Shown here: positions 9,412-64,000 of the stretch, piece after piece
How the letters are laid out: every line of letters begins with the position of its first letter
How positions within the stretch are numbered: position 1 is the stretch's first letter
NCBI GenBank assembly: GCA_021613535.1
Contig: CP075492.1
Span: 9,548,001-9,612,000, forward strand
Reading direction: 5' to 3'
From: Adineta vaga
Lineage: Eukaryota; Animalia; Rotifera
DNA: 64,000 nucleotides
The notes under the pieces: generated by a model
What the model saw: only the letters and a program-made list of their open reading frames with translations
Told to the model about the DNA's origin: nothing
Database searches by the model: none
Program-made: the position numbers and the translations under genes

Positions 9412-9768
9412 TTAACCAAATTTTGGAATACCGGAAAATGCTGATGTAAACGCACGTTTGCCAAATTTTGGAATACCATGAAATAAATTGGACGTTAAAC
9501 GTTTTGGTTTAATTTCAGTACGAATAAAATCTTCCTGTTCATTCAGATGACAATCATCATAAAGTATACATAAGATTTTGAAATAATTCAATTTATTTTC
9601 ATGTTGTGTCATCAATGGTTTATTGATTTGATTTTGTTCATCCACATACGTTGGAGTTAGTGTTTGTTCTTGTTCATTTTGATCAACATATGAAATTGGT
9701 GAAGAGTAACAGTAAAAATTCAGAAGAACAAGAATGATCGTTAAATGAAATGATAAATGATGATGCAT
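9412..9768 (-). CDS. Neuropeptide precursor yielding two GIPKF-amide peptides
   Basis: Signal peptide, then KR-LTSNLFHGIPKFG-KR-AFTSAFSGIPKFG-stop (dibasic sites plus Gly amide donors); intronless. Confidence 0.88.
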   Translation of the reverse strand: MHHHLSFHLTIILVLLNFYCYSSPISYVDQNEQEQTLTPTYVDEQNQINKPLMTQHENKLNYFKILCILYDDCHLNEQEDFIRTEIKPKRLTSNLFHGIPKFGKRAFTSAFSGIPKFG

Positions 9769-11587
9769 GATGAAGAATCTTCTTGTCGTGGATGCGTACG
9801 TCTTATATCAATGATGAAGAAATAGATATGAATCTCTTCGAGAGATTTTCTATCTATCTATCTATCTATCTCTTTCTCTCTTTCTACTTTTTCGTCATCG
9901 TCTCGTTTCTTCTTCCTACATCCGAGTATCTTTTTATGAACTTGTTATCAAATTACTTGGTAACACTTTCAGTGAACAGAAAAGAATTTCGATCAATTCG
10001 ATAAACAAAATTTGTCGATGATAATAAACGATCTTTTCAATAAATAATCAAGAATGATCGATGAAATTGACATATTAATGATAGATATTGACAGATTAAC
10101 AAAAGGATCAATGTATATCTTATTCTCATTAATTTTTATCGAATTAATAATTGTAAAGAACTATACAAACAAAGAACGCCTACGATAGATTCTCATTCGT
10201 ATAGTTACACAAGAATATCTTTTTAGTTCGAAGGAAATCTTTCGAAATATAGATAATCATAGTAAATTATAAATATTAGCAGAGAGAGAGAGAGAAAGAA
10301 AAAACGACATATTGATGACACGCATCATTATCTATATAAAACATGAACTTGTTTGAGTGCTAAAAGCATTGAATTTGATCTAAACGAACATTTTTCTCCT
10401 AAATATCAATGACGTCTTTTGATAAATTTCTTTCCTAATTTGTTATTTGATAAAACTTTAGATTGATCATGGTTATCATTAGAACGGACGAAACTAATGA
10501 TGAATTCAATTCCATAATTGAGATATGCATATTAAGAAAGAAACATATCAAATATGAGTATTATTTTTTTCTAGTAACAAATTGTTCAGAATCATATCTA
10601 TGAAAATAAGTCATGTAATGATATTCCATAAGCCATTGCGTTTGTGGTCTTGTCATGATGATTGAGAGATAACTCACTATTATTGCATCCGATTGGACCC
10701 ATACAAATATGTCGATTAATTGTTATTTGTCAGAAACTGTAATATGCAAACAAGTAAAAGTCATGTTATTACGATTTCGACGACATAATACACGTTGATA
10801 AAAGATGCTGTTTTTAGATGCATAAAAAATGTCAACAGTTAGAATGATGGTTTTCAAAGTCAAATTATGTCTATTATAAAACAAATAAATCTTTATGCAC
10901 CTAAGTGTTCATTCAATATTTTCTAATTTTCTGTTGAAATAGCCACTTATCACATTACAGCATAAATTTAAAATAGGAAGTTAATTTTCACAAAATAGCA
11001 TTGTACCATAAATTGAATAAGGCATTATTACGTCAGAGCTTTATCTTTTACTCGAAAAAGTATAACTTGATCAGATCATCATCATGGTTCCTACGTTCCT
11101 TTAATTTCGCAAGAGGTTAAAATAATATTATTATCAAATATAATGAATATATCTTAATGAAACCACACACACACACCTACGTTCATAATCTTTTCATGAA
11201 AATATTTACTGATAAAAACTATGCCATATGGCATGAACTATTTGCTCAGAGTAAATAATTGGTTTTTATAAAATCATGATTAAGAAAGAATTAAGTCCAC
11301 ATTTTTTTTTGTTCAAATCTAGCTAAAGTTGTAAAATAGCAACTACTCAGAAATAATTAGTACGATTTTGAGTTAGTTCATATAATTAGTTTTCTATTCC
11401 TTTTTTTGTTCTTGTTCATATAAATAAAGGAACGAGTGCTGGTGAGGAAAAAAATTATTCTATCCCACGCATACGCACTACCCATGTGTATTGAAGCAGT
11501 ATTCAACAGTTTATAAGTATATAAGAAATATATTACAATACATTACATTATAGAAATTGAACATCAAGAAACGTTTACAATTTACCC

Positions 11588-11904
11588 ATGAATTTAAGTA
11601 AGAATATTTTCATTCATAAAACTTTTATTTGATTTGAATATTTGTTTTCTTAGCATACGTCTATCTTTTTATTACTCTGATAACTATTTTCTCTACTAAT
11701 GCTCTACCATATCCGTCTTCATTCTATTCGGATGATACTCCGGAATCACTCTTTGATGATTCATATATACAACGGCGAGAAGTTTTCGATCCATATGGAT
11801 TTAATTCTATATTAAGTCGATTTGTTGATCATGGACCATACTATGGTATGCAAAAGAAAAGAACTGTTCGCTTAATTGAAGAAGATATCTACGACACTAT
11901 ATGA
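11588..11904 (+). CDS. Small secreted neuropeptide-like precursor (86 aa; not in ORF track)
   Basis: Exons 11588-11597 and 11654-11904: MNLTYVYLFITLITIFSTNA-LPYPSSFYSDDTPESLFDDSYIQ-RR-EVFDPYGFNSILSRFVDHGPYYGMQ-KKR-TVRLIEEDIYDTI*; TATA-like at ~11512-11524. Confidence 0.75.
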
Positions 11905-17973: not shown

Positions 17974-19332
17974 ATGTTTAAGTCAAGATTCGTCGTTGTT
18001 TTCTGCGCATTAATTGTCGTTAGCTATTTAACTTTTAACTATAAATCTCTACGACTTGTCTTTCATCCCGATCGTTATCATGGTATAAAAATTCGTTGTA
18101 TTGTCTTGATTTTAAGATGATATTTCTTATCAATTTTAGGTCATTCTATTTCCAATGGCGTCTTTTTCGAAGGATGGTATTATAAATTAGTTTTTGAAGA
18201 ATTAAAAAGTACCATTATTGTCATTCCGGGTGTACATAGAAGTGATAATGATCGTTTTACATTTACTATGATTGCATACGATAATACATCGAATTTTTTT
18301 CGTTTACCATTTGAAGCATTTTCTTCATCTACCGATGAATTCTTGGTAACAATTAATGATGACAAAAATATATTTTCTTACGAAAAATTGATTGTTAATC
18401 TTCAACCATCATCAACGGATGATGCTACAGAAAGTTTTCAAATGAATTTAACTCTTTCTTCACATCATACCATACCAGATCTATCTTGGTTAATGCCAGG
18501 AACAATGGGCCCTTTTTCATGGATGCCAACAATGCAATGTAATCATCATGTATTGAGTTTACAATATGAAGTACAAGGTTCTATAACAATAAATCAAAAT
18601 AAAAGCATGCCTGTTCATGGTGTGGGTTATCTAGAAAAAGATTGGGGCTATTCATTTCCATCAGTATGGATATGGGGCCAGGGTAATCAATGGGAACATC
18701 TTCCATCAACAATCTCACCTCCAAGTTTATTCTTTTCTTTGGCATTGATTCCATGGTATTTCAATCTAGAATTACCAGGTTTCCTTGTTATCTTCGAATA
18801 TAACGATGAAGTTTATCGTTTCAACTCATATTTATTATCACTGATCGATGACTTAACAGTTGATGAAACAACAAATCATATTTCATTTGCTGTTTATGAT
18901 ATTTCATTTCAACATAAACTTCATATTAGTACATATTGTGAAAATTGTAAAAATACTCCAAGCGTATTATTATATGGTCCACGTGATGATCGAATGGATA
19001 AATTTGTTCGAGAAATTCTAGTACGAAATATTTATTTCAATGTTCGATTAACAAGATTAATTCAAAACTTAACAACAGATCAAAACAATGAAGATCTTCT
19101 GATTCAACATGGTTATTCTGAAGAGATGATTTTTCAAGGACGTGCAAAGAATGTAGCAGTCGAAATCAATGGTGATATTCCATCGTTAATCAAAACATAT
19201 CGTACTATATTTGAAAACTTTCATCCTTGGAATTATTCATTCGGAAGAAGTTTAATTCAATATTACAAATTGGTCTTAGCGAGTATTTTAGGTATAATTG
19301 TCATACGTTTCGTTTTAGTTAAATGTCGATGA
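17974..19332 (+). CDS. Tocopherol-cyclase-family protein, bacterial type, membrane anchored (HGT candidate)
   Basis: Exon 1 17974-18082, intron 18083-18139. Motifs FHPDRYHG..FFEGWYYKL..IVIPG, MGPFSWMPTMQCNHHVLSL, GYLEKDWGYSFPSVWIWGQGN, ALIPW; hydrophobic segments at both ends. Confidence 0.8.
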
Positions 19333-31251: not shown

Positions 31252-33141
31252 TTTCTTACTAAGTCATCTGAAAACAGATTAACATGTCAAGATTAAACAA
31301 ATAATATATAAAAGAAGAAAAATTAGATGAAGAAGTACAAGAAAAGTGTGTGAAGAGAAATCATCTAATCAATTTTCTTTCTTGACAAGCATTGACAATG
31401 AATTGAATGTAGTTAAACTAACATTTCTTGTGTGCTGTTCTTCTTCTTCCTTTTCTTCTTCTCTCTTCGTTCAATAATACTATACTGCGTGTTTAATAAA
31501 AAAAACTTTTCCCTACAGTAATAAAAGAAAAGGAAGAGAGAAAAAAAACACATTGTTGAGGAAGAATCTCTTGACAAGATCTCAGTATAGAAGTGAATAT
31601 ATTCTATTCAATTAATCTAATGAGAGATATTTTTCACTATATGATGAGAATCGAAAAAAAAAGAAAGAAAGTGTCTATCGACTTTTCACAGTTGACATAC
31701 AATGTGAATAGAAAAGATACGAAGAAAATGATAAGCAAAATCAATTGAAATTTTCTTACCTAGTTTGTTTGATCTATACTAACGTGTCAAATATAAAAGC
31801 TTATTGCTCTTGAATGCTTATACTAACGTTTGTTTTACAAATAGAAATCTAATGAAGTAGAAATCAAGCAATAGTATATACAAATATATTCTTTCAACAA
31901 CTTTTCGATATCTTAAATACATTTACATTGGTGTGTGTGTGTGCATATACTTCATTTAAACGGAAGATGTATGTGTTCGTTTTTTTGTTGTTCTATACAT
32001 GATGACAATGATATTTGACATAAGAAAGAGAAAAAAAAGGCGTTGATTCAAATTTCATCACATAGCTATTCGATCAGTTTGTATTTATAAAAGTAAGAAA
32101 TCATATTATATGAAGTATCTTGCCTTTTCTTGTCAATCAGGCAGACAGACAATTGGAACAATTGAAGTAACATGAAGTATGTTTAGTATACTAAAACAAT
32201 ACCATAGATCATATAAGTAATTTGATATGAATAAATAAAACTGATTTCCCAAAATACAGACTTATTTCAATAAAAATTAGGAAGACAAATATTTGTAAGA
32301 TTTTTACAATATCTAATTTTGTAAAAATTTCGTGCAATAAAAACTTTCTTCCGTTTCAAGTATTCATCAATGTCACTGTCGTTCGAAATAGTAATAAAAA
32401 AAGAATGTAATTTTGTCATAAGTTTTATTCACATCGCAGTGTAAGATTTAGATACTGTAAGAATACTCTTATTTATGTAATACCATCGAAAGTGGTTATT
32501 CAAGCTGCATTAATCGTATATTTCATTTTCTTTCTATTCCACACATATCAGGTTATATCATGATTGATTTGTTTGGTATCCGTTGGTAATCATAGAGACT
32601 ATACTTTCGTGCTTATTCATTAGTCTTGAAATTGATTCAGTACTTTCTATATTGATATGATGAATATAAAACTAGTGAAGAATTATCTCTGCTTCTAAAG
32701 ATATCATTCTTGATGTTTGAAAGCAAATAGAAGTAAAGTTTTCATAGTCACACTGTTGTCTTGATTGGTATATATAGAAAATTAACAAAGGTTATTTCAA
32801 CCTTTTGATAAAACTCAATCGCCATTGTGTTCAAGATATTATAAATATAAAAAAAATGTTAAAATCACGTGGTCTTATCGAAATCAAATATTTATATGTG
32901 TGGGAAGAACACAGAATAGGTGAAAACATTATTCACTTGTGTTTACAACATTGTATTTTCGACATGCATCGATGATTTTCTCAATCGTAGAATCATCCAA
33001 CGAAAAACTAGTATTCTCTTTTTTCTTTCATACAGTATGCAGAAATATTTTTTCGTTGAGTGACGACTGATTATACTTTTATTTTTCGACTCTTTAGTAA
33101 ACCAAAGTGTCTAAATAGTCAAGCTTGACGATAATATAAAT

Positions 33142-33789
33142 ATGACGAAATGTTCAATTCAATTGATTTATTTGGCTTTATTAGCTGTTTTATTTTTAAC
33201 AAATAATATTGTTCAATCAGCACCACATAGCACTGAAGCGGATGACGAAAGTAATGAACTTCGTGATACTCGAGGACTTCAAACTCTCGTCGATTTTATT
33301 CAAGGTGAGAATTATACATTTTAATTGATGATTTCGAATTTTAGGTGCCTCTTTACAACAAAAGCTGACATCATAGTTGTGCAGAGTAGCTTTCAGAATT
33401 GTTCTAGACACTATTTTTTTATTAAAAACAAATATTGCTTTCTGAGTTTTGCGAAATCACTGGATGGAACTTTACTAACACGTTATTAATCACTTACAGT
33501 GTTGTATTCAATAATATAGATTAAAGAGAGTGTATTTTTGAGTACTATCTTGCAATTACCTTTCATATCATTCATACCGTTCAATTTGTTTTTCTCTAAG
33601 ATTTGATGACGAAACCGGGTATTCGCAAAATAGAAGATCATCAGAAAGGATTGGAACACATGCGTCGTGGTGAGTTTTGTAATATTTGATTCATGAAATT
33701 CTCATTCTAATTCATTTTTCTTAGTTTCTCAACATTCATCATTTCTTGAAAAGGACTTATCGTCCGAAGACAATGATGCCATGCAATAA
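33142..33789 (+). CDS. Secreted peptide precursor A (signal-acidic propiece-amphipathic peptide)
   Basis: Exons 33142-33304, 33601-33669, 33725-33789: MTKCSIQLIYLALLAVLFLTNNIVQSA-PHSTEADDESNELRDTR-GLQTLVDFIQDLMTKPGIRK-IEDHQKGLEHMRRVSQ..AMQ*; paralogous to precursor B. Confidence 0.75.
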
Positions 33790-35232
33790 GCGTATGAACG
33801 ACGTCGGACTGTTTTGCATCAACTAAAATTCTTCAATAACTCATCTAAGCAGCAATATTAAACTATAATTAATATCTTCGAATTTCTTTGTTTTTTCAAA
33901 TGTTATTAAAAGATTTACTTTTGTCTCATTAACTTGTTCTTTTATTTCTTTGTATCTTTTAACTGAAACAGTATTTTTTTTCAAATAGTCTTCTTTAGTT
34001 AAATTGATGGTGCATTTATTATAAACCCATATAGTATAGCTTAACATAATGAAGTAATCCATAGCAATACAAAAAACTGTTTTGATGATAAGATTACCTG
34101 AACGATTCATAATAGTACCTTTCGGATCTTAAACTAATTGATATAATACCATATTGACATTGATAAAAACTTCTCCTAAAACCTTTATAGATAGAGACCA
34201 TAGATTGACCTATAATCTATTGTGTATCTCCTACTTCATTTTTGTAAATAATAAAGATAGTACGAAGTTGAATAATATCATGTATCAGGTGCATCTGATG
34301 CTAAGACAATGTGCTCGAAAGAACTATAATTGTTGTTTCATTTGCGATGTTACGAACAGAATCTATAGATTGACAGTATATGAACATCGTGTGCAAATGA
34401 CTTATAATGCTCCGACAGGAACTGTTGTTTTTCTCTGAATGACTATTAAGCTACATATCAAGTGTATTTTATAGCTTCAGTTTAGTTGCATATGACGAAA
34501 AATGATACGAAAATGACGTGAGAACTATTAACGATATATTTTATACGACAAATGTAGTATTGGATAATGTGCCTCATCAAACAATCATATTCTGAATGAA
34601 AAAGATCCGAGTAAGAGTTTCTCATAGTGATCAGTTATCAAGTTTTTGACATATAGTGTATGATAAAAATGACGATGAAATGAATGTTTACTAAGCGACA
34701 TTTCGCGCATGTTTTTCGACGAAAAATGTATTCGCTTGATGGATTTCGCATCGATAGTACCATCTAACATTATCCCTGTCTTAAATCATGCAAGACATGA
34801 ATAGAAGAAAACAATTATATGATAAATCAAGCAGAACAGATAGATGTAATATTATATGGTATGTATGAATAGTAGTATCCAAAAAAAAGGCAAAAAATAA
34901 TGTTTGTCTCTCCAAAATTGTTTCAAAACACTCATAACAAGCAGAAAAAATTGAGAGATATACCATATGAGTCAAATAAAATATAAATACGAAAGCGAGT
35001 CGTACATTATTCGAACGGATTTATACCTGAGTCTACCAGGTAAATATGAATATGTTATTTTGGACACGCTTCGACGATTATTTTTCTCTCTAATAATCAT
35101 CACACATAACTAAGTGTACCAAAAAATCACATAGAACGTAGGCATTTTTTCGATTCTCTGTTTCTCTTGCATATTTTATTTGCAGATCATATGTCCATCT
35201 TATATTTACCAAACGACAAGAAAATATTTACA

Positions 35233-36281
35233 ATGCATCATTTATTACAACTGAGTTGTGTAGCTTTATTGGCGTTTGTACTTTTAACAAATAATATTGT
35301 TCAATCGGCGCCTTTCAATGGTCCAGACGATGACGATTCATCTGAGATTCTTGATACGCGCGGAATATTAGGTGACTTTAAAGAATGGGTAACAGGTGAG
35401 AATTATGTTTTATTTTTAGGACAAACAGTCATGAGTTGAGTTCACAAATTTCTTGCACAAAAGTTTGTTTCAACTGATAGAGTTTTCCAAGACTTTCTTC
35501 AATATATGATATAGAACACACCCGTAGAGTTTGAATATCTATCAAATCATCTCACCTACTTCATTAATACCTTGAGTAATGTTTATTTCAACAGAATCCT
35601 TGGAAAAAATATTGAGCTGTGCCAAAATTTACAATTGTACGATCCAGGTTTCCAAAATATGCACCAGAACTGCATCATTGAGAAATTGATTGCGTAACAG
35701 ATTTTCTGGGACAGATACTAATTTAGAACATTGTGACCTCTTACTTTTGCGTTTGTTTAAAAAATTAACCTATTTCAGATCGTCGAGATTCTTATCGAAA
35801 ATAAAAAGTATGAATAGTAAATTTCTATCAAACGAGATTATTTATATTGGAAATTTGAATATTGATAATGAGTAATAATACAATGCTTGAATCATTTCAA
35901 AGATAACATATTTATTTATTTATTCATTTCACATTTTCTCTAGATCTTTTTCACAAAATTGGTCTTACAAAACGAGAACAATGTGACGCATTGGATCATA
36001 TGATTCGTAGTGAGTAACTTTTTTTCATTATTTACTCTCCAGAAAACATAACAATATACCAACAAATGAGACTTAATTTTGTTTGTTAAAGTACATTTTC
36101 AGAATGAAATACTAGAAAAATTAGAAACATTCCGATGAATTCTTATTCTATCTCGTATGTTGTGGCTCTTCAACGTGAATCGAAACGTAACGAACCCGTA
36201 TAGGCTGAAAGCAGTGAGTTCGTAGAACTAGAATATGAACGGCGCCAGCCCTTCGGTGTCAATAAACGTCAAGTCGCTTGA
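35233..36281 (+). CDS. Secreted peptide precursor B (tandem paralog; third exon disrupted)
   Basis: Exons 35233-35395, 35944-36009: MHHLLQLSCVALLAFVLLTNNIVQSA-PFNGPDDDDSSEILDTR-GILGDFKEWVTDLFHKIGLTKR-EQCDALDHMIR. Exon-3 homologue 36166-36281 has acceptor GG instead of AG and an internal TAG; the real 3' end is uncertain. Confidence 0.7.
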
Positions 36282-36558
36282 ATCAATGAAAGCGTTTCAA
36301 TAATTTATTCCAAAATCGAACTTAAAACATAATAGACATCTTTATAACTCTTTTCTTTTGTTAAGCTTTTATTTTCATATTGTTAGTTGCTTCTCTTAGT
36401 TCCCGATATAATCTTTTCTGCTATAAATCATTCAGTTTAAATTATATTTATCAAGAAATTAAAAGAATATCAAATAAACGGTTTATATCGATGAATAGTT
36501 AATAATAGTAGAAAAATCCATCGAAAAAGCACTCCTTTCATCTGTAATTCAACTGAAT

Positions 36559-56964: not shown

Positions 56965-59900
56965 ATGGCTGATGAACACATGATGGGTGCTGAAGCTGAA
57001 GATGTTCAGTTTATACGAACAGTAAATCAAGAAAATTTTCTTATTTGAAATAATATCGGATGTTTTTTTAGGAAGATCATATATGTCTTAGTTGTATACC
57101 TGTTTCTAGTCTTAAACGCATGTCATTATCAGCTGAAGCATTTGGAAATCGAATGTGTTATTTGGAAGATATTTCCAATGAAGTAAGACTATCGAGAAAA
57201 ATTCGATGTTTTCTTTTTTTAAAGCTTATGATAATAGATTTGTTGTCCTGATCTTGCATCATGTGTATTTCTACTGGAACAAGCAGTATCTGTTCGAGCT
57301 TTACAGGAAATGGTGAATACAACTTCGGCTGAATCATTAGCCAATCAAGGTGGACAAACATTTCGAACACTATTATATGGGCATGCAGTACTTCTTCGAC
57401 ATTATCGTAGTCAAATGGTATGATTCATAAATTTGATTTTTCAAAACTATATCTTTTATTTAAGTATTTGAGTTGTCTATCAACAAGTACTTCGAATGAT
57501 AAATTGGCTTTTGATGTTGGTTTAAAAGAAGACGCAATAGGTCTGTTTGTCTAGAATCATACGTAATAAGTACATGAATGTTTGTTTTCTTAGGTGAATC
57601 CTGTTGGTGGACGATTCATCCAGCTTCGAAACAACGAAGTGAAGGCGAAAAAGTGCGCTTTAATGATGATGTTATCTTGGTATCTGTATTTTCGGAACGT
57701 TATCTTGTATGAAAATTTCATTCAGAGAGAAAAGAATGAATAGTTAAACTATGTTTGCATTTTCTTTTAGCATGCATATATGTCAAATAGTGAACGTGGT
57801 CGAGTAAATGCTTCATTTCGTCAACAAGTTTGGAGTCTTGTACCAATCTCAAGTGGAATAGCACGAATAAAGAATCCAGGTTTCTAATATATCATCGAAT
57901 AATATGTTATAATAAATGATCTGTTTTGGATAATTAGGATTCGTCCTTGGTGGTGATGTTTTACGATTAATGCATGGGAATATGGATCATTGTATAACAA
58001 CACCGCCACCCGATTCTTCGACGAACGATGATTCAGGAAGGTAGGACATCAATCATTTGATTGACATAATATCATTGAATTTCTTTTAGTTTGTTCATCA
58101 AAGGTGGTACAGCTTGTTCTCAAGCTCGATCACTATGGCGTATTGAACCTTTTAAAACTAAGTAAATAATCACTGATTCTATATATACATATATGAAAAC
58201 TTCCAATTTATTTCTTATTTCAGATGGTACAGTGGTTTTATTGGATGGAATGCCTTGATTCGTCTACGACATATCACATCTGGCCTTTATTTAGCAGTAC
58301 TTGGTGATGAGAATGGTAATAATTAAAAATCTTTATTATTATTTTTTTTTCTGTTAAACGTAATTTTTAGGTCCACGAGTGACATGTATATCGAAAAAGA
58401 ATGCTAATCCTATTGCTATAACATTTGAATTAAGAATGTCAAAAGTAATTGATAGAAGAAAAGAGAAAATTGAAAATAGAAATTTCATTTGAATTAGGAA
58501 AAGCAAACAGAAGATAATCAGGAAGAAGAAGATAATTTAGGTGTACCAACTATAAAATATGGTGATGCTATTGTATACATTCGTCATGTTGATTCAGATC
58601 TTTGGATTAGTTATGAAACACTTGAATTAACAATAAAAGGAATTGGAAAAGTCGAAGAAAAACGAGTATGAATTTGAATAATCATCTTTTTTTTTCTTGT
58701 TTTCATTTGAAATATTTTGGTATTTCAATAGATCATTCCAGCTGTTGAAGGTCATATGGATGATTGTTTTCGACTTGTACGAGCACAAGAGCAAGATCAA
58801 AAAACAGCACTAGTAATTCGAATATGTAATGCAATTTTAGGAAGATTCAATCGATCTGAGTAAGTTTTACTAGAAAGTTTTTATCGACTGTCTAGTTTCT
58901 TGTTGTTTTAGTCCAATGTCAGTAGATTCCGAAGCAATAAATCATCTATTATGTAAAAGTGATGCTATTCAAGCACTTTTACATGATTTAATTGGATTTT
59001 TTGCACAACCATCATCATCATTTGATCATGAAGAAAGACAATTACGTTTGAAAATATTGAAAAATCGACAAGATCTATTTCAAGAAGAAGTATTACATAT
59101 GACGATTTTGCATTATTTTCATTGTTTTTCGTTTCATAGGGAATGATACGAATATTAATCACAGCAATAAATTTTTTTAGTGAACGTCGAGATAAATCGA
59201 CATTATTAGAAGGCGTTGATGAAAAAATTGAAGATATTACAAATAAACTTTATGTTGTCTTAGCAGCATTGATTAAAGGTAATCGAGCTAATTGTTCAAA
59301 TTTTGCTCAAAGTGCACGACTTAATTGGCTTGTTAATCGTTTACAATCTCAACAAGCATCAAGTGGAGTTTTAGAAGTACTTCATAGTGTACTCGTTGAT
59401 AGTCCTGAAGTTTTAAATATGATCACAGAATCACATATACTTGCTAGTAAGTTATTTGAATCGAAATCATGTTTTATTAGATACAAAGCATTTCTTCTAG
59501 TCATTGGATTATTGGATAGAAATGGTCGTGATCCAAAAGTACTTGATGTTCTTTGTTCCTTATGTGTTAATAATGGTGTAGCTGTTCGTGCTAATCAAAA
59601 TCTTATTTGTGAAAATATTTTACAAAGACGTGATCTTCTATTACAAACGACACTTGTTGATCATGTCACTTGGTAAGAATAGATAATGATAAAATAGAAA
59701 CAAAAACCTTGCTTTTTGAGATCATGTATTCGATATAATTAGTTTTCTAGCGTAAAATTGATTAGAAATCATTACGAAACAAGACCAGTTCTAATTGCCT
59801 AATAATACAATATAAATAAAGACAAATTTTATGCTTGATTGCATATCATATCTATAGATTTGATGACCTTTGTTTTTCTTTTAAGATAACAAATGACTTT

Positions 59901-62900
59901 TGTTTGTTCGCTTAAATTGAATTGATAGATCAAAAAATTTACTTAACTAAATTAAACTATTCGTGTATATAACTATTTATTTTTCTTCAGTATGCGTCCA
60001 AATATTGTCGTTGGAGTTGAAGATGGTGAATCCATGTATCGTAAATGGTATTTTGAAGTTATCATTGATTATATTGAACAAGTAACACATATGCAGCCAC
60101 ATGTTCGTATCGGTTGGGCAACAACACATTTTCAACCATCACCTGGCCATGGTGATGGTTTTACTGCGAATGGCATTGGCGATAATACATATTCGTATGG
60201 TTTCGATGGTCGAAATATTTGGTTTGCTGGACGAGCATATAATGTTTTTGATGATCATACACAACAGATGGGTTTAAAAAAGAACGATGTTATTGGATGT
60301 TTATTAGATTTAAATATGCCTGAAATGTGGTTTTCATTAAATGGTGTACCTATAAAAGCTCTTCTGAGAGGATTTAACTTAACGGGAATGTTTTATCCTG
60401 TCATATCATTGTCATCTCGTGTTAGGTTTGTTTAATCGACATAGTTCTAATATTTTAGTTGAAGATTATTTTAGTTGTCGATTTTTACTGGGTGGAGAAC
60501 ATGGTCGATTCATTCATCGACCACCAGAAAGTGCAGCACCACTCTACGAAGCTATGTTATTAAAACAAAAAGTTTGTATTGAACCATGTTTCTCATTTGG
60601 AAATATTGAACGAAATCGTATGGCTGGCCCAATACAAATTCAACATAATATTGCATTTACACCACAACCAGTACGAACAAATCATATAATTCTACCTCCA
60701 CATCTTGAAAGAGTCTGTGAACAATTAGCAGAAAATATTCACGAACTATGGGCTATGTCAAAAATTGCGAATGGATGGAAATTTGGTGAAGTATATTTCC
60801 ATTCTAAATAATTTCTTCTAATATTAAAAAAGCATGATTTTTATCTTTATTTCATATCAAGTACCGGGATGAAGCACAAAAAAGACATCCATCTTTAACA
60901 TTTTTTGAAAATCTACCATTCGACGAAAAACATCAGCATCTTACCACAGCAACAGATAGTTTAAAAAGTCTATTAGCATTCGGTTATCATATCGGTTTAG
61001 AAATGAAAATTGATGATCAAAGAATGAAACGTACGAAATTATCAAATACATATGCACAATCGAATGGATATAAACCACAACCATTAGATTTGTCGAATGT
61101 GAATTTATCGACAAAAATGGATGAATTAATTGAAATTTTAGCAGAAAATACACATAATGTTTGGACAGCTGCAAGAATTAAAGATGGTTTTACATATGGT
61201 ACATCTGATGTAAGTAAATAGAAAGTTTCCTGAAATGTCTACAATCATATTCATTGTAGAATCCTCTTCAAAAACGTAGTCCTTATCTACTTCCATATTC
61301 AATTATTGATGATTGTATAAAGAAAATTAATCGAGATACTGCTAGTGAAACAGTTCGAACTCTTCTTGCCTATGGTTATACAATTGATACACCGGTTGGT
61401 GATGTGAATGATCTTGATGGACTTGATAAAAATATCATCAATAAAGAACGTTTACTAACCTATCGAACATATCGTGCTGAACAAACATTTGCTGTTACTC
61501 GTGGTAAATGGTATTATGAAGTCGAGATTTTGACAACAGGTCGAGTATTAATTGGATGGGGACATGCATCAAAACTTGATGCATATTATCCACTTGGAAC
61601 TGATTCATATGGATATGCATTTGATGGTTTAAATGCTCAACGTTTACATCAAGATACATTGAAGGTTTTGGTAAACCATGGTGTAAACATGATATTATTG
61701 GTTGTATGATTGATTTACATGATAAAACAATTAGTTTTTCATTGAACGGAGAATTAATTCTTGATAATTATGGCAATGAAATCGCTTTCGATGAATTAGA
61801 AATTGATGAAATTGGTTTTGTACCTGTATTAACAACATTTAGTGGTCAAAAAGCTCGATTAAATTTTGGACAAGATGTTAATTCATTGAAATATTTTACA
61901 TCATGTGGTTTACAAGAAGGTTATGAACCATTTTGTGTGTAAGTGAAATAAATAGGATCGACTTTTAGATAAAACTCCTATCAATTGATTATTTCTAGTA
62001 ATATGTCACGAAATCTCACCTTTTGGTATTCAAATTTCATACCGAAATTTCAAACCATCAAATCCGATGCACCATCGGTCTCTGTTATTCGCATTGGTGC
62101 AAGGTAAAATATCTTCCTCTAGAAGGAAATATCTATTCTCTTTCGATCTTTAGTCGCGATAATCCACCAATGATTAGACTTGAATCACGATTATTTGGAA
62201 CATTAGAAAAAGTTGAATTTGAATTTTTTCGATTATCACTACCAATCTCATGTCATGATAAATTTGTGCCAAGGTAACGTTCATAATTGTTTTGTTTCTG
62301 TTCATTGAAAAGTTTCATTTTGAAAAGATATGTCACACTTGAACGACGTCAAATTGCTTTGAATCATTATCTTGATTCTCAAGTGGAAAAAAATAATTTT
62401 TTATTTCCACAAAAAACGTTTTCATCTCCTCCAAGAGTTTCGATTGAACATGCAGATCTTCCATTAGCTAATAAAATTGCTCGTGATCCGAATAATTTAC
62501 TAGTTAAATTTCGTGATCAATCTTCACTTAGAAATAATACAGTAGCTTCACGAAAAAGTTCATCACCTGTTACTCCACGACGTAAACCACAACGAAGATC
62601 ATCGATCAGTAAAATCAATAATCTTTTCCATTATTTTCTCAAAGAACAACAACCAGATAAACGAATAATAAAATCAAGTACAAATGGTTCAGAAACACCA
62701 AATAGCAATCGACATTTACAACCACCGCCTGTATTAAAACCTCAATTAAAATCCATGGGAAGTAGTGAAGGACGAAGATCAATTGGAGAATCTGATGGAG
62801 AACTTCTTGATCAACAAGCGAATAATTCAGAATATGATGATATACGAATTATTAATGAACATGTTCATGAATATTATTATGCAGTAAGAATTTTACCTGG

Positions 62901-64000
62901 TCAAAATGCACGTTCTGTCTTTGTCGGTTGGGTAACATCACGATTTCGACCCATCTATCGACGAGATGATACATCAACTAATAAATTAACAAAACTAATT
63001 CGACGTTGTACATTGATTCAAACAGCAGATGATGGTTTAATTGTTGACAGTATTCAACGACAAGATGCTTACATGTTTTGTGCTCAAGATCTATTAGATA
63101 ACATGGCAGATAAAGAAAATATTGCAAGACGTGTTACTAATGGTTTATTAATTGGATGTTTATGTGATGTATCAACTGGACAATTAACATTCTATATTAA
63201 TGGAAAAGAATCTCCACAAAAACTTCAGGTTGAACCTAGTACAAAACTATATCCAGCTGTATTTGTTGAACCAACTGTAAAAGAAGTTTTACAATTTGAA
63301 TTAGGACGTATTAAAGTAAAAAATAATAAATAGTACATAGAATGAGAAATCATTTTTATTGTATTCTTCTCTTGTAGAGTTGTTTACCATTAACAGCAGC
63401 TTTATTTCCAAGTTTAAGTCGTGAAGAACGTTATATTCCACGATTACCATCTCGCTTACAATTACAATCATTAGTTCATTGTCATTGGTCACGTGTACCG
63501 AATACAAATATTCGTTGTCAACAATTGAAATTATCAGAAATTCGTGGATGGAGTGTCTTTGTTGAAGATCCTGGTAGACTAGGCTTGTCTATCTTCATGA
63601 TTCTTTGTTGTTAATTCTTTTCTTTTTTGCATAATTACATAGTTTATATGGAAGCAGTGTACATTCCTGAAGATGATCGTTGCACAGATATGTTAAGTTT
63701 AGTTGAAGATGAAGATACTCTAAGCTTTTGTTCGAATACATTGAGACTCTATAGTGCTATATGTGCTCAAGGTAATAATCGTGTTTCACATGAAATCTGT
63801 AAACTTGTCGACGAGAAACAATTGATGTATTGTGTAAAAAATGCTTGTAAGTTCAATGTAAAAAAACTTTATATCGTTAGAAGAATTTTCATCTTTTCCA
63901 ATTAGATATTTGTGGACCTATTCGAATTGGTATATATGAATTACTTATTGCATTACATTTTGAACCGTACATTAAAACAAGGTAATAACTATGAATTAAA
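56965..64000 (+). CDS. RyR: Ryanodine receptor, 3'-partial; apparent 1-nt frameshift at ~61659
   Basis: [76 protein letters not shown]1 RKWYFEV, RyR repeats [10 protein letters not shown] / [13 protein letters not shown]2, SPRY3 LQFELGR. Confidence 0.96.

Follow-up and report, generated by a model that had tools for sequence, protein, structure and literature searches.

The DNA analysed here (the window) is a stretch of 64,000 nucleotides from Adineta vaga, with the composition of AT-rich, intron-rich animal DNA. It contains two tandem paralogs on the + strand: gene A (33142-33789; three exons, two phase-1 GT-AG introns, 98 aa) and gene B (35233-36018; 78 aa). A first-pass annotation, made from the letters alone, had described an unannotated pair with a shared signal end, an acidic propiece ending in DTR and a Gly-initiated segment. 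The pair and its shared parts are confirmed. The word «unannotated» is not, since both products are already NCBI hypothetical proteins of Adineta vaga, i.e., UJR09559.1 (A, locus I4U23_013795) and UJR09561.1 (B, locus I4U23_013796).

The sole strong DNA match between the regions of the two genes is 65 nt of signal-coding sequence. A 37-nt match of other contigs at 33189-33225 has unrelated flanks and was taken as chance. No third copy of the family is found within the 64-kb window; the copy number is thus two in the window, and four clusters over all searches. The two genes stand between neighbours of the opposite strand, one of the galactosyltransferase family (PF13733, E 1.9e-43), the other for an aldose 1-epimerase (PF01263, E 1e-25), which are uninformative on the function of A and B. 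No kappaB-like site is found in 31300-36400.

Other parts of the window deserve mention in their own right. The ORF at 9412-9807 (−) begins like a signal and encodes two peptides of GIPKF type that end in Gly and are bounded by KR and stop; it resembles an amidated neuropeptide precursor, with no Pfam neuropeptide match. A second small signal-bearing ORF (11638-11904, +; RR and KKR sites, no Pfam match) lies 1.8 kb away and is divergent from it. An uninterrupted ORF of 403 codons (18121-19332, +) matches tocopherol cyclase (PF14249, E 4e-8) and is a candidate horizontal acquisition. The exons at 58874-63905 (+), judged by eye, may be those of a ryanodine receptor gene.

Features of genes A and B (positions in the window; X followed by a number designates a public run)
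Feature	Position	Strand	Observation
Likely spliced-leader trans-splice acceptor, gene A	33096..33097	+	X6 contig
Gene A exon 1 CDS	33142..33304	+	End or splice joint of contigs at 33304
Gene A intron 1, phase 1, GT-AG, 296 nt	33305..33600	+	Skipped in X1, X2, X5, X6, X7
Gene A exon 2	33601..33669	+	Rest of helix 1, P-G hinge, RK (63-64), RR (76-77)
Gene A intron 2, phase 1, GT-AG, 55 nt	33670..33724	+	Skipped in X1, X2, X5, X6, X7, X14
Gene A exon 3 CDS	33725..33789	+	C-terminal piece acidic (net −4), non-amphipathic, then stop
ATTAAA signal (33905) and poly-A site (33932), gene A	33905..33932	+	Poly-A loose end in X6
Gene B exon 1 CDS	35233..35395	+	Polymorphic between runs
Gene B intron 1, phase 1, GT-AG, 548 nt	35396..35943	+	Position and phase as in A
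Gene B exon 2	35944..36018	+	KR (64-65) between the end of helix 1 and a second short segment
Probable third exon of gene B	36166..36281	+	One divergent X14 contig

Exon 1 of gene A encodes a predicted signal (residues 1-26, the cleavage site being deduced from the sequence), an acidic propiece (27-44, net charge −4, ending in DTR) and the first 10 residues of an amphipathic segment. A second short amphipathic segment lies between the two basic pairs of exon 2. Intron 1 is skipped in 5 of the 8 public runs (4 studies) and intron 2 in 6 of 8 (5 studies), runs with GT-AG joints being treated as RNA and none being recorded as such. Run X11 reads through both introns with no splice joint, and run X10 has no contig on gene A. 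The X6 contig has 8 loose letters ahead of 33096 which, together with the genomic AG, reproduce the 3'-terminal 10 nt of the spliced leader of rotifers (Table 1 of PMC3795323). Other contigs begin at 33040, so that unspliced 5' ends exist too; an X5 contig extends past the poly-A site to 34015. Given the skipped GT-AG introns, the poly-A tail and the leader, transcription is the plain reading for gene A. A 60-aa NCBI product (P0001) keeps intron 1, as does in part an X14 contig from which intron 2 is removed; an intron-1-retaining form would terminate in the middle of the helix.

Exon 1 of gene B likewise encodes a predicted signal (1-25), an acidic propiece (26-43, net charge −5, ending in DTR) and the amphipathic segment up to its residue 11. 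Its intron is skipped in 1 of the 8 runs (an X14 contig with 31 letters on the short side). Exon 2 reads through the second donor (36010), which is conserved, to the stop at 36018; two contigs with zero differences from the window (X1, 35946-36181; X14, 35943-36286) are unspliced at this donor. Another X14 contig, divergent at 11 positions, is joined across 36010-36165. The third exon, as it stands in the window haplotype, has no canonical acceptor and contains an in-frame stop at 36201-36203. A three-exon form of B probably exists in another allele or strain, the window haplotype having two coding exons. Alternative acceptors at 36103, 36226 and 36232 have no contig support and were rejected. 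No contig of X2, X5, X6 or X7 lies on the exons of B, and the two genes are unequal in contig depth; neither point ranks them.

The first-pass annotation had given two three-exon genes with identical phase-1 introns. This stands for A and for intron 1, found at the same place and phase in both genes, but not for the second intron of B, which is read through in a haplotype ending in exon 2. The end of B that it had placed at 36281 belongs to the stop-interrupted frame, and is replaced by the NCBI stop.

Relatives are few. With exon 1 of B as query, a full HMMER scan of 1.84 billion representatives found three proteins at E <=0.001, namely A, B and an ENA metagenome ORF. Of the 7997 candidates scored in a profile search over proteins of 41-172 residues, 4 were retained, the new one being a protein of A. 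ricciae with 96 residues (CAF0956242.1). The ENA ORF is close to the latter, and its similarity ends where intron 1 starts in A and B. Word-index protein searches covered 29-95 aa for exon 1 of A, a range that excludes the 98-aa A itself, and 96-2000 aa for exon 1 of B, a range that excludes the 78-aa B and in which 0 of 8 candidates held. No Pfam neuropeptide match is found at E <=10 for A and B, nor at 0.1 for the A. ricciae protein. Over the whole of Pfam and in PDB sequences there was no significant match, and none of the 130 Foldseek rows reaches E 0.001. Metagenome scans confirmed 0 of 247 stretches and prokaryote genomes 0 of 47 candidates, the latter result leaving horizontal origin without sign. 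No relative named from another rotifer genus appeared in these searches, whose libraries may or may not include those proteomes. Two of the outcomes that the first-pass annotation had named against its own reading did not occur: spliced transcripts exist, and no match to a known neuropeptide or structural family was obtained.

Several weak matches were rejected: (i) CbiN, below threshold; (ii) ComX, PIN and SecD, also below threshold, for the A. ricciae protein; (iii) EMC7, at E 1.4; (iv) the structure rows of the Atlas. Five metagenome loci found by pattern (L001-L005) are all chance matches, without signal or DTR and with 41-62% GC. As far as these searches reach, the family appears restricted to Adineta, short and fast-evolving genes being easily missed. 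A and B are real and expressed, and constitute a small, undescribed family of their own.

The three full-length members (A, B and the A. ricciae protein) have the same anatomy. All three begin with a hydrophobic N-terminus, from which secretion is predicted. The end of the signal is near-invariant (10/10 between A and B, 8/10 to A. ricciae). The acidic propiece, of 17-18 residues, ends in DTR in 3/3 members, with a net charge of −4 (A), −5 (B) and −2 (A. ricciae). Then come, in the same order in 3/3 members, an amphipathic segment of 18-20 residues, a hinge that contains Gly and a further amphipathic segment, weaker than the first, followed in A and in the A. ricciae protein by RR and an acidic tail. 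KR stands after 20 residues in B and A. ricciae. In the same columns A has K-I, its RK lying one column earlier; the dibasic site seen at first in both genes thus holds for B and not for A. As A lacks the second arginine of KR, its product may extend over 31 residues, to RR. No glycine precedes the basic sites in any of the 3 members, i.e., no amidation signal is present, unlike in the neuropeptide-like precursor at 9412-9807.

The best hydrophobic moment over 14 residues is 0.615 for A, 0.654 for B and 0.77 for A. ricciae (shuffle p 0.005, 0.0185 and 0.002, respectively). Among 3488 overlapping 20-mers taken from 18 other, hand-picked ORFs of the window, 50 reach the moment of A, 16 that of B and 0 that of A. 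ricciae. The net charge of the mature segment is −1 for A, −1 for B and +1 for A. ricciae, and the charge computed at pH 5 is positive for the 31-mer of A and the 20-mer of B. The amphipathic periodicity and the near-neutral to slightly anionic charge claimed for the two peptides are thus borne out. The apolar face takes up 140-160 degrees of the helix. The polar/apolar border is occupied by lysines, with acidic residues opposite; this is clearest in B, where both lysines are 86-94 degrees from the apolar axis and the acidic residues 114-174. It is weaker in A (one lysine at 110 degrees, acidic residues at 150-170) and in A. ricciae, where the polar face also contains two lysines. Two AlphaFold models, of low confidence (mean pLDDT 56.5 and 62), have a helix, a break and a helix after a disordered propiece.

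The claim that the signal is more conserved than the mature peptide holds for two of the three comparisons. Identity of the prepro part vs. the mature part is 24/43 vs. 5/18 between A and B (p 0.055) and 24/42 vs. 2/18 between A and A. ricciae (p 0.0014), but 17/42 vs. 7/18 between B and A. ricciae (p 1.0). As the last pair has no contrast, the latter is carried mostly by A. The mature parts of B and A. ricciae both retain D, K, W, V, K, G, L and KREQ. Usually, the mature part of neuropeptide precursors is the more conserved one; the pattern of A-B and of A-A. ricciae is the reverse. By the Nei-Gojobori method, A and B have dN 0.26 and dS 0.49 in the signal, dN 1.03 and dS 1.33 in the mature part. 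The proposed dN/dS check gave no ratio above 1 between these paralogs, and the mature dS is so near saturation that positive selection cannot be shown.

Among the differences listed for gene A, the coding sequence has 1 in 297 nt, intron 2 has 4 in 55 nt (p 0.002) and intron 1 has 15 in 217 nt (p 2e-5), which suggests that the coding sequence is under constraint. Exon 1 of gene B has, among the variants listed for X1, X11 and X14 pooled, 9 variant sites, 6 non-synonymous and 3 synonymous; two of the nine are listed in two runs. Four of the listed non-synonymous variants fall within 31 nt around the cleavage site; two change D and T of DTR, the cleavage arginine being unchanged among the variants listed. 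Relative to the number of sites (about 6/126 non-synonymous vs. 3/36 synonymous among the variants listed, from differing and unphased runs) the ratio is below 1. Allele counts are rough, collapsed and unphased contigs dropping variants. The variation of exon 1 hints at diversification or relaxed selection, without being a test of either. One X11 contig (35070-36118) has 6 of its 8 substitutions in exon 1 of B and zero in the 548-nt intron 1, a pattern that may stem from contig collapsing.

Layout was then compared with that of known precursors. Anuran skin antimicrobial peptide precursors are described in PMC6245896 as having a conserved signal, a negative propeptide and a variable, cationic mature region. 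The A/B family has in common with them the conserved signal, the negative propeptide and an amphipathic mature region, which is variable in some of the comparisons. It differs in that (i) no homology of the signal or prepro part was found by Pfam and library searches; (ii) a single arginine (DTR, 3/3 members) takes the place of the Lys-Arg before the mature peptide; (iii) the mature segment is near neutral (−1, −1, +1) and not cationic; (iv) a second C-terminal helix, as well as an acidic tail, goes beyond the anuran layout. Hypervariability of the mature region is found for A-B and A-A. ricciae, not for B-A. ricciae.

Linear peptides of spider venoms derive from simple and binary precursors processed at PQM and iPQM motifs (PMC8290080). 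They share with the A/B family an acidic propeptide ending in arginine and anionic trailing pieces. An iPQM-like Arg followed by Glu within three residues is present in 3/3 members (A 63-66, B 65-66, A. ricciae 64-65), a motif so short that chance could give it. The spider PQM has Arg at −1 and Glu at −2 to −4; this Glu is absent in 3/3 members. Moreover, spider linear peptides are lysine-rich, which the A/B peptides are not, and there is no homology. No venom gland is known from rotifers.

Scorpion non-disulfide-bridged peptides are short amphipathic helices followed by basic residues and a C-terminal propiece; typically, they come directly after the signal and end in Gly-basic-basic for amidation. 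In the A/B family an acidic propiece comes first and no Gly precedes KR. Anionic scorpion peptides do exist (PMC9197468). Ascaris cecropins (PMC6780910) are linear amphipathic helices made with an acidic pro-region, their mature peptides being basic and highly conserved. Pro-region and helix are as in the A/B family, and their 31 residues equal the longer candidate of A; there is no cecropin Pfam match, and charge and conservation differ. What A, B and the A. ricciae protein do have, according to the computed moments and the low-confidence models, is the amphipathic helix without disulfides of the linear helical host-defence class. As the defining features of anuran and spider precursors are lacking, the family is filed on its own: a real, undescribed family of peptide precursors whose build can be called defence-like.

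Tentatively, A and B are best read as an Adineta-restricted family of membrane-active, host-defence-like peptides, a reading held at somewhat less than even confidence. The proposed defence function is read from architecture: the layout of 3/3 full-length members matches the anuran scheme, and the amphipathic pattern is kept while the mature sequence turns over (A-B, A-A. ricciae). Counting against it are the net charges when set beside the cationic anuran regions, the lack of excess mature divergence between B and A. ricciae, whose retained residues would suit a receptor ligand too, the low copy number (no large expanded family), and the nearest family-named neighbours in language-model space, which are peptide-hormone precursors, all below 0.9. 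The initial defence interpretation is thus kept as regards the resemblance to linear defence-peptide precursors and the amphipathic pattern, also kept by A. ricciae; it is weakened by the missing frog and spider motifs, the near-neutral charge, a paralog dN/dS not above 1 and the count of two copies in the window.

Under the defence-like reading, the precursor would enter the secretory pathway, as its hydrophobic N-terminus suggests. The acidic propiece and the acidic tail would hold the helix inactive until a convertase cuts after the arginine of DTR, then at KR or RR. Cleavage at KR would free 20-mers from B and from the A. ricciae protein, in addition to a second short helix; A would more likely release a helix-hinge-helix of 31 residues ending at RR. 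The computed monoisotopic masses of the predicted pieces are 1988.07 (A 45-62) or 3589.87 (A 45-75), 2288.22 (B 44-63) and 2285.28 (A. ricciae 43-62). The freed helix would insert into a foreign membrane by its apolar face. As the lysines lie at the border and the polar face holds the acidic residues, the apolar face would contribute more to insertion than charge. The near-neutral charge would make zwitterionic targets (fungi, oomycetes, protists), or acidic compartments in which the histidines become charged, likelier than anionic bacteria; a classical cationic antibacterial role is probably not that of the A/B peptides.

The residues shared by B and A. ricciae (7/18 aligned, plus KREQ) also bear on another proposal, that A and B encode a signalling peptide specific to the lineage, be it a hormone, a neuropeptide or a waterborne cue, whose helix binds a receptor as PDF, DH31 and NPY kinds do. 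Mono- and dibasic sites are typical of prohormones, the charge is near neutral and the copy number low, and helical hormone precursors (PDF/PDH, DH31, NPY) resemble A and B in size, signal and convertase-type sites. The named Atlas neighbours include PDH, DH31, NPY and UTS2B precursors; their scores are 0.79-0.81, under 0.9, and recognition falls short of the bar. There is neither a Pfam neuropeptide match nor an amidation glycine, and the mature part of A, only 2/18 identical to that of A. ricciae, is not conserved with the others. Matches are confined to Adineta-type sequences, whereas rotifers keep 20 conserved neuropeptide families (10.1101/2024.07.20.604414). A signalling role is judged rather unlikely, though slightly less so than the next proposal.

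The border lysines and the acidic polar face of A and B resemble the class A helix of apolipoproteins. A pattern conserved without sequence would also fit physical binding, i.e., a secretion that attaches to lipids or surfaces (as a gut surfactant, an apolipoprotein-like carrier, or a component of mucus or foot cement) with no killing role. This is rather improbable: the A. ricciae helix has two more polar-face lysines, the acidic propiece and convertase-type sites suggest a product kept inactive before its release, tandem helices are usual in exchangeable apolipoproteins, and neither Pfam nor Foldseek gave a family or fold match. That the products are not processed as drawn, or that B is a decaying duplicate with relaxed selection and only A works, is the least probable proposal. 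In its favour, the window haplotype of B has no usable third exon, variants listed in two runs alter D and T of its DTR and A has no conserved second arginine. Against it, the frame of B is open through both helices, B is spliced at intron 1, its mature part is closer to A. ricciae than that of A, and the variants listed spare its cleavage arginine.

Beyond the defence-like reading itself, a wider proposal can be made, which we regard as possible but doubtful. A and B would be the first linear helical host-defence family of rotifers, independently evolved, with near-neutral helices attacking fungal or oomycete membranes. In an asexual animal, this family would have diversified by tandem duplication, by loss of a cleavage site (20-mer vs. 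31-mer) and by allelic divergence near the processing site.

Horizontally acquired NRPS/PKS genes have been linked to the defence of bdelloids against the fungi that parasitise them (PMC11258130). The locus numbers of A and B have no true match in 13 of the 16 supplementary files of that study, nor do the accessions in supplementary file 9, some published expression tables carrying other gene ids. Rotifer genomes lack big defensins (PMC7203481), and searches of the open-access literature listed no paper on a rotifer-encoded helical defence peptide. Should A and B be hormones or lipid-binding peptides, they would still form a small and new family of Adineta, with a narrower interest. If the defence-like reading is true, a native gene-encoded effector would fill this gap in rotifers, three short natural peptides would be available for testing, and allelic divergence at a gene of the A/B type would bear on how asexual animals keep pace with their parasites.
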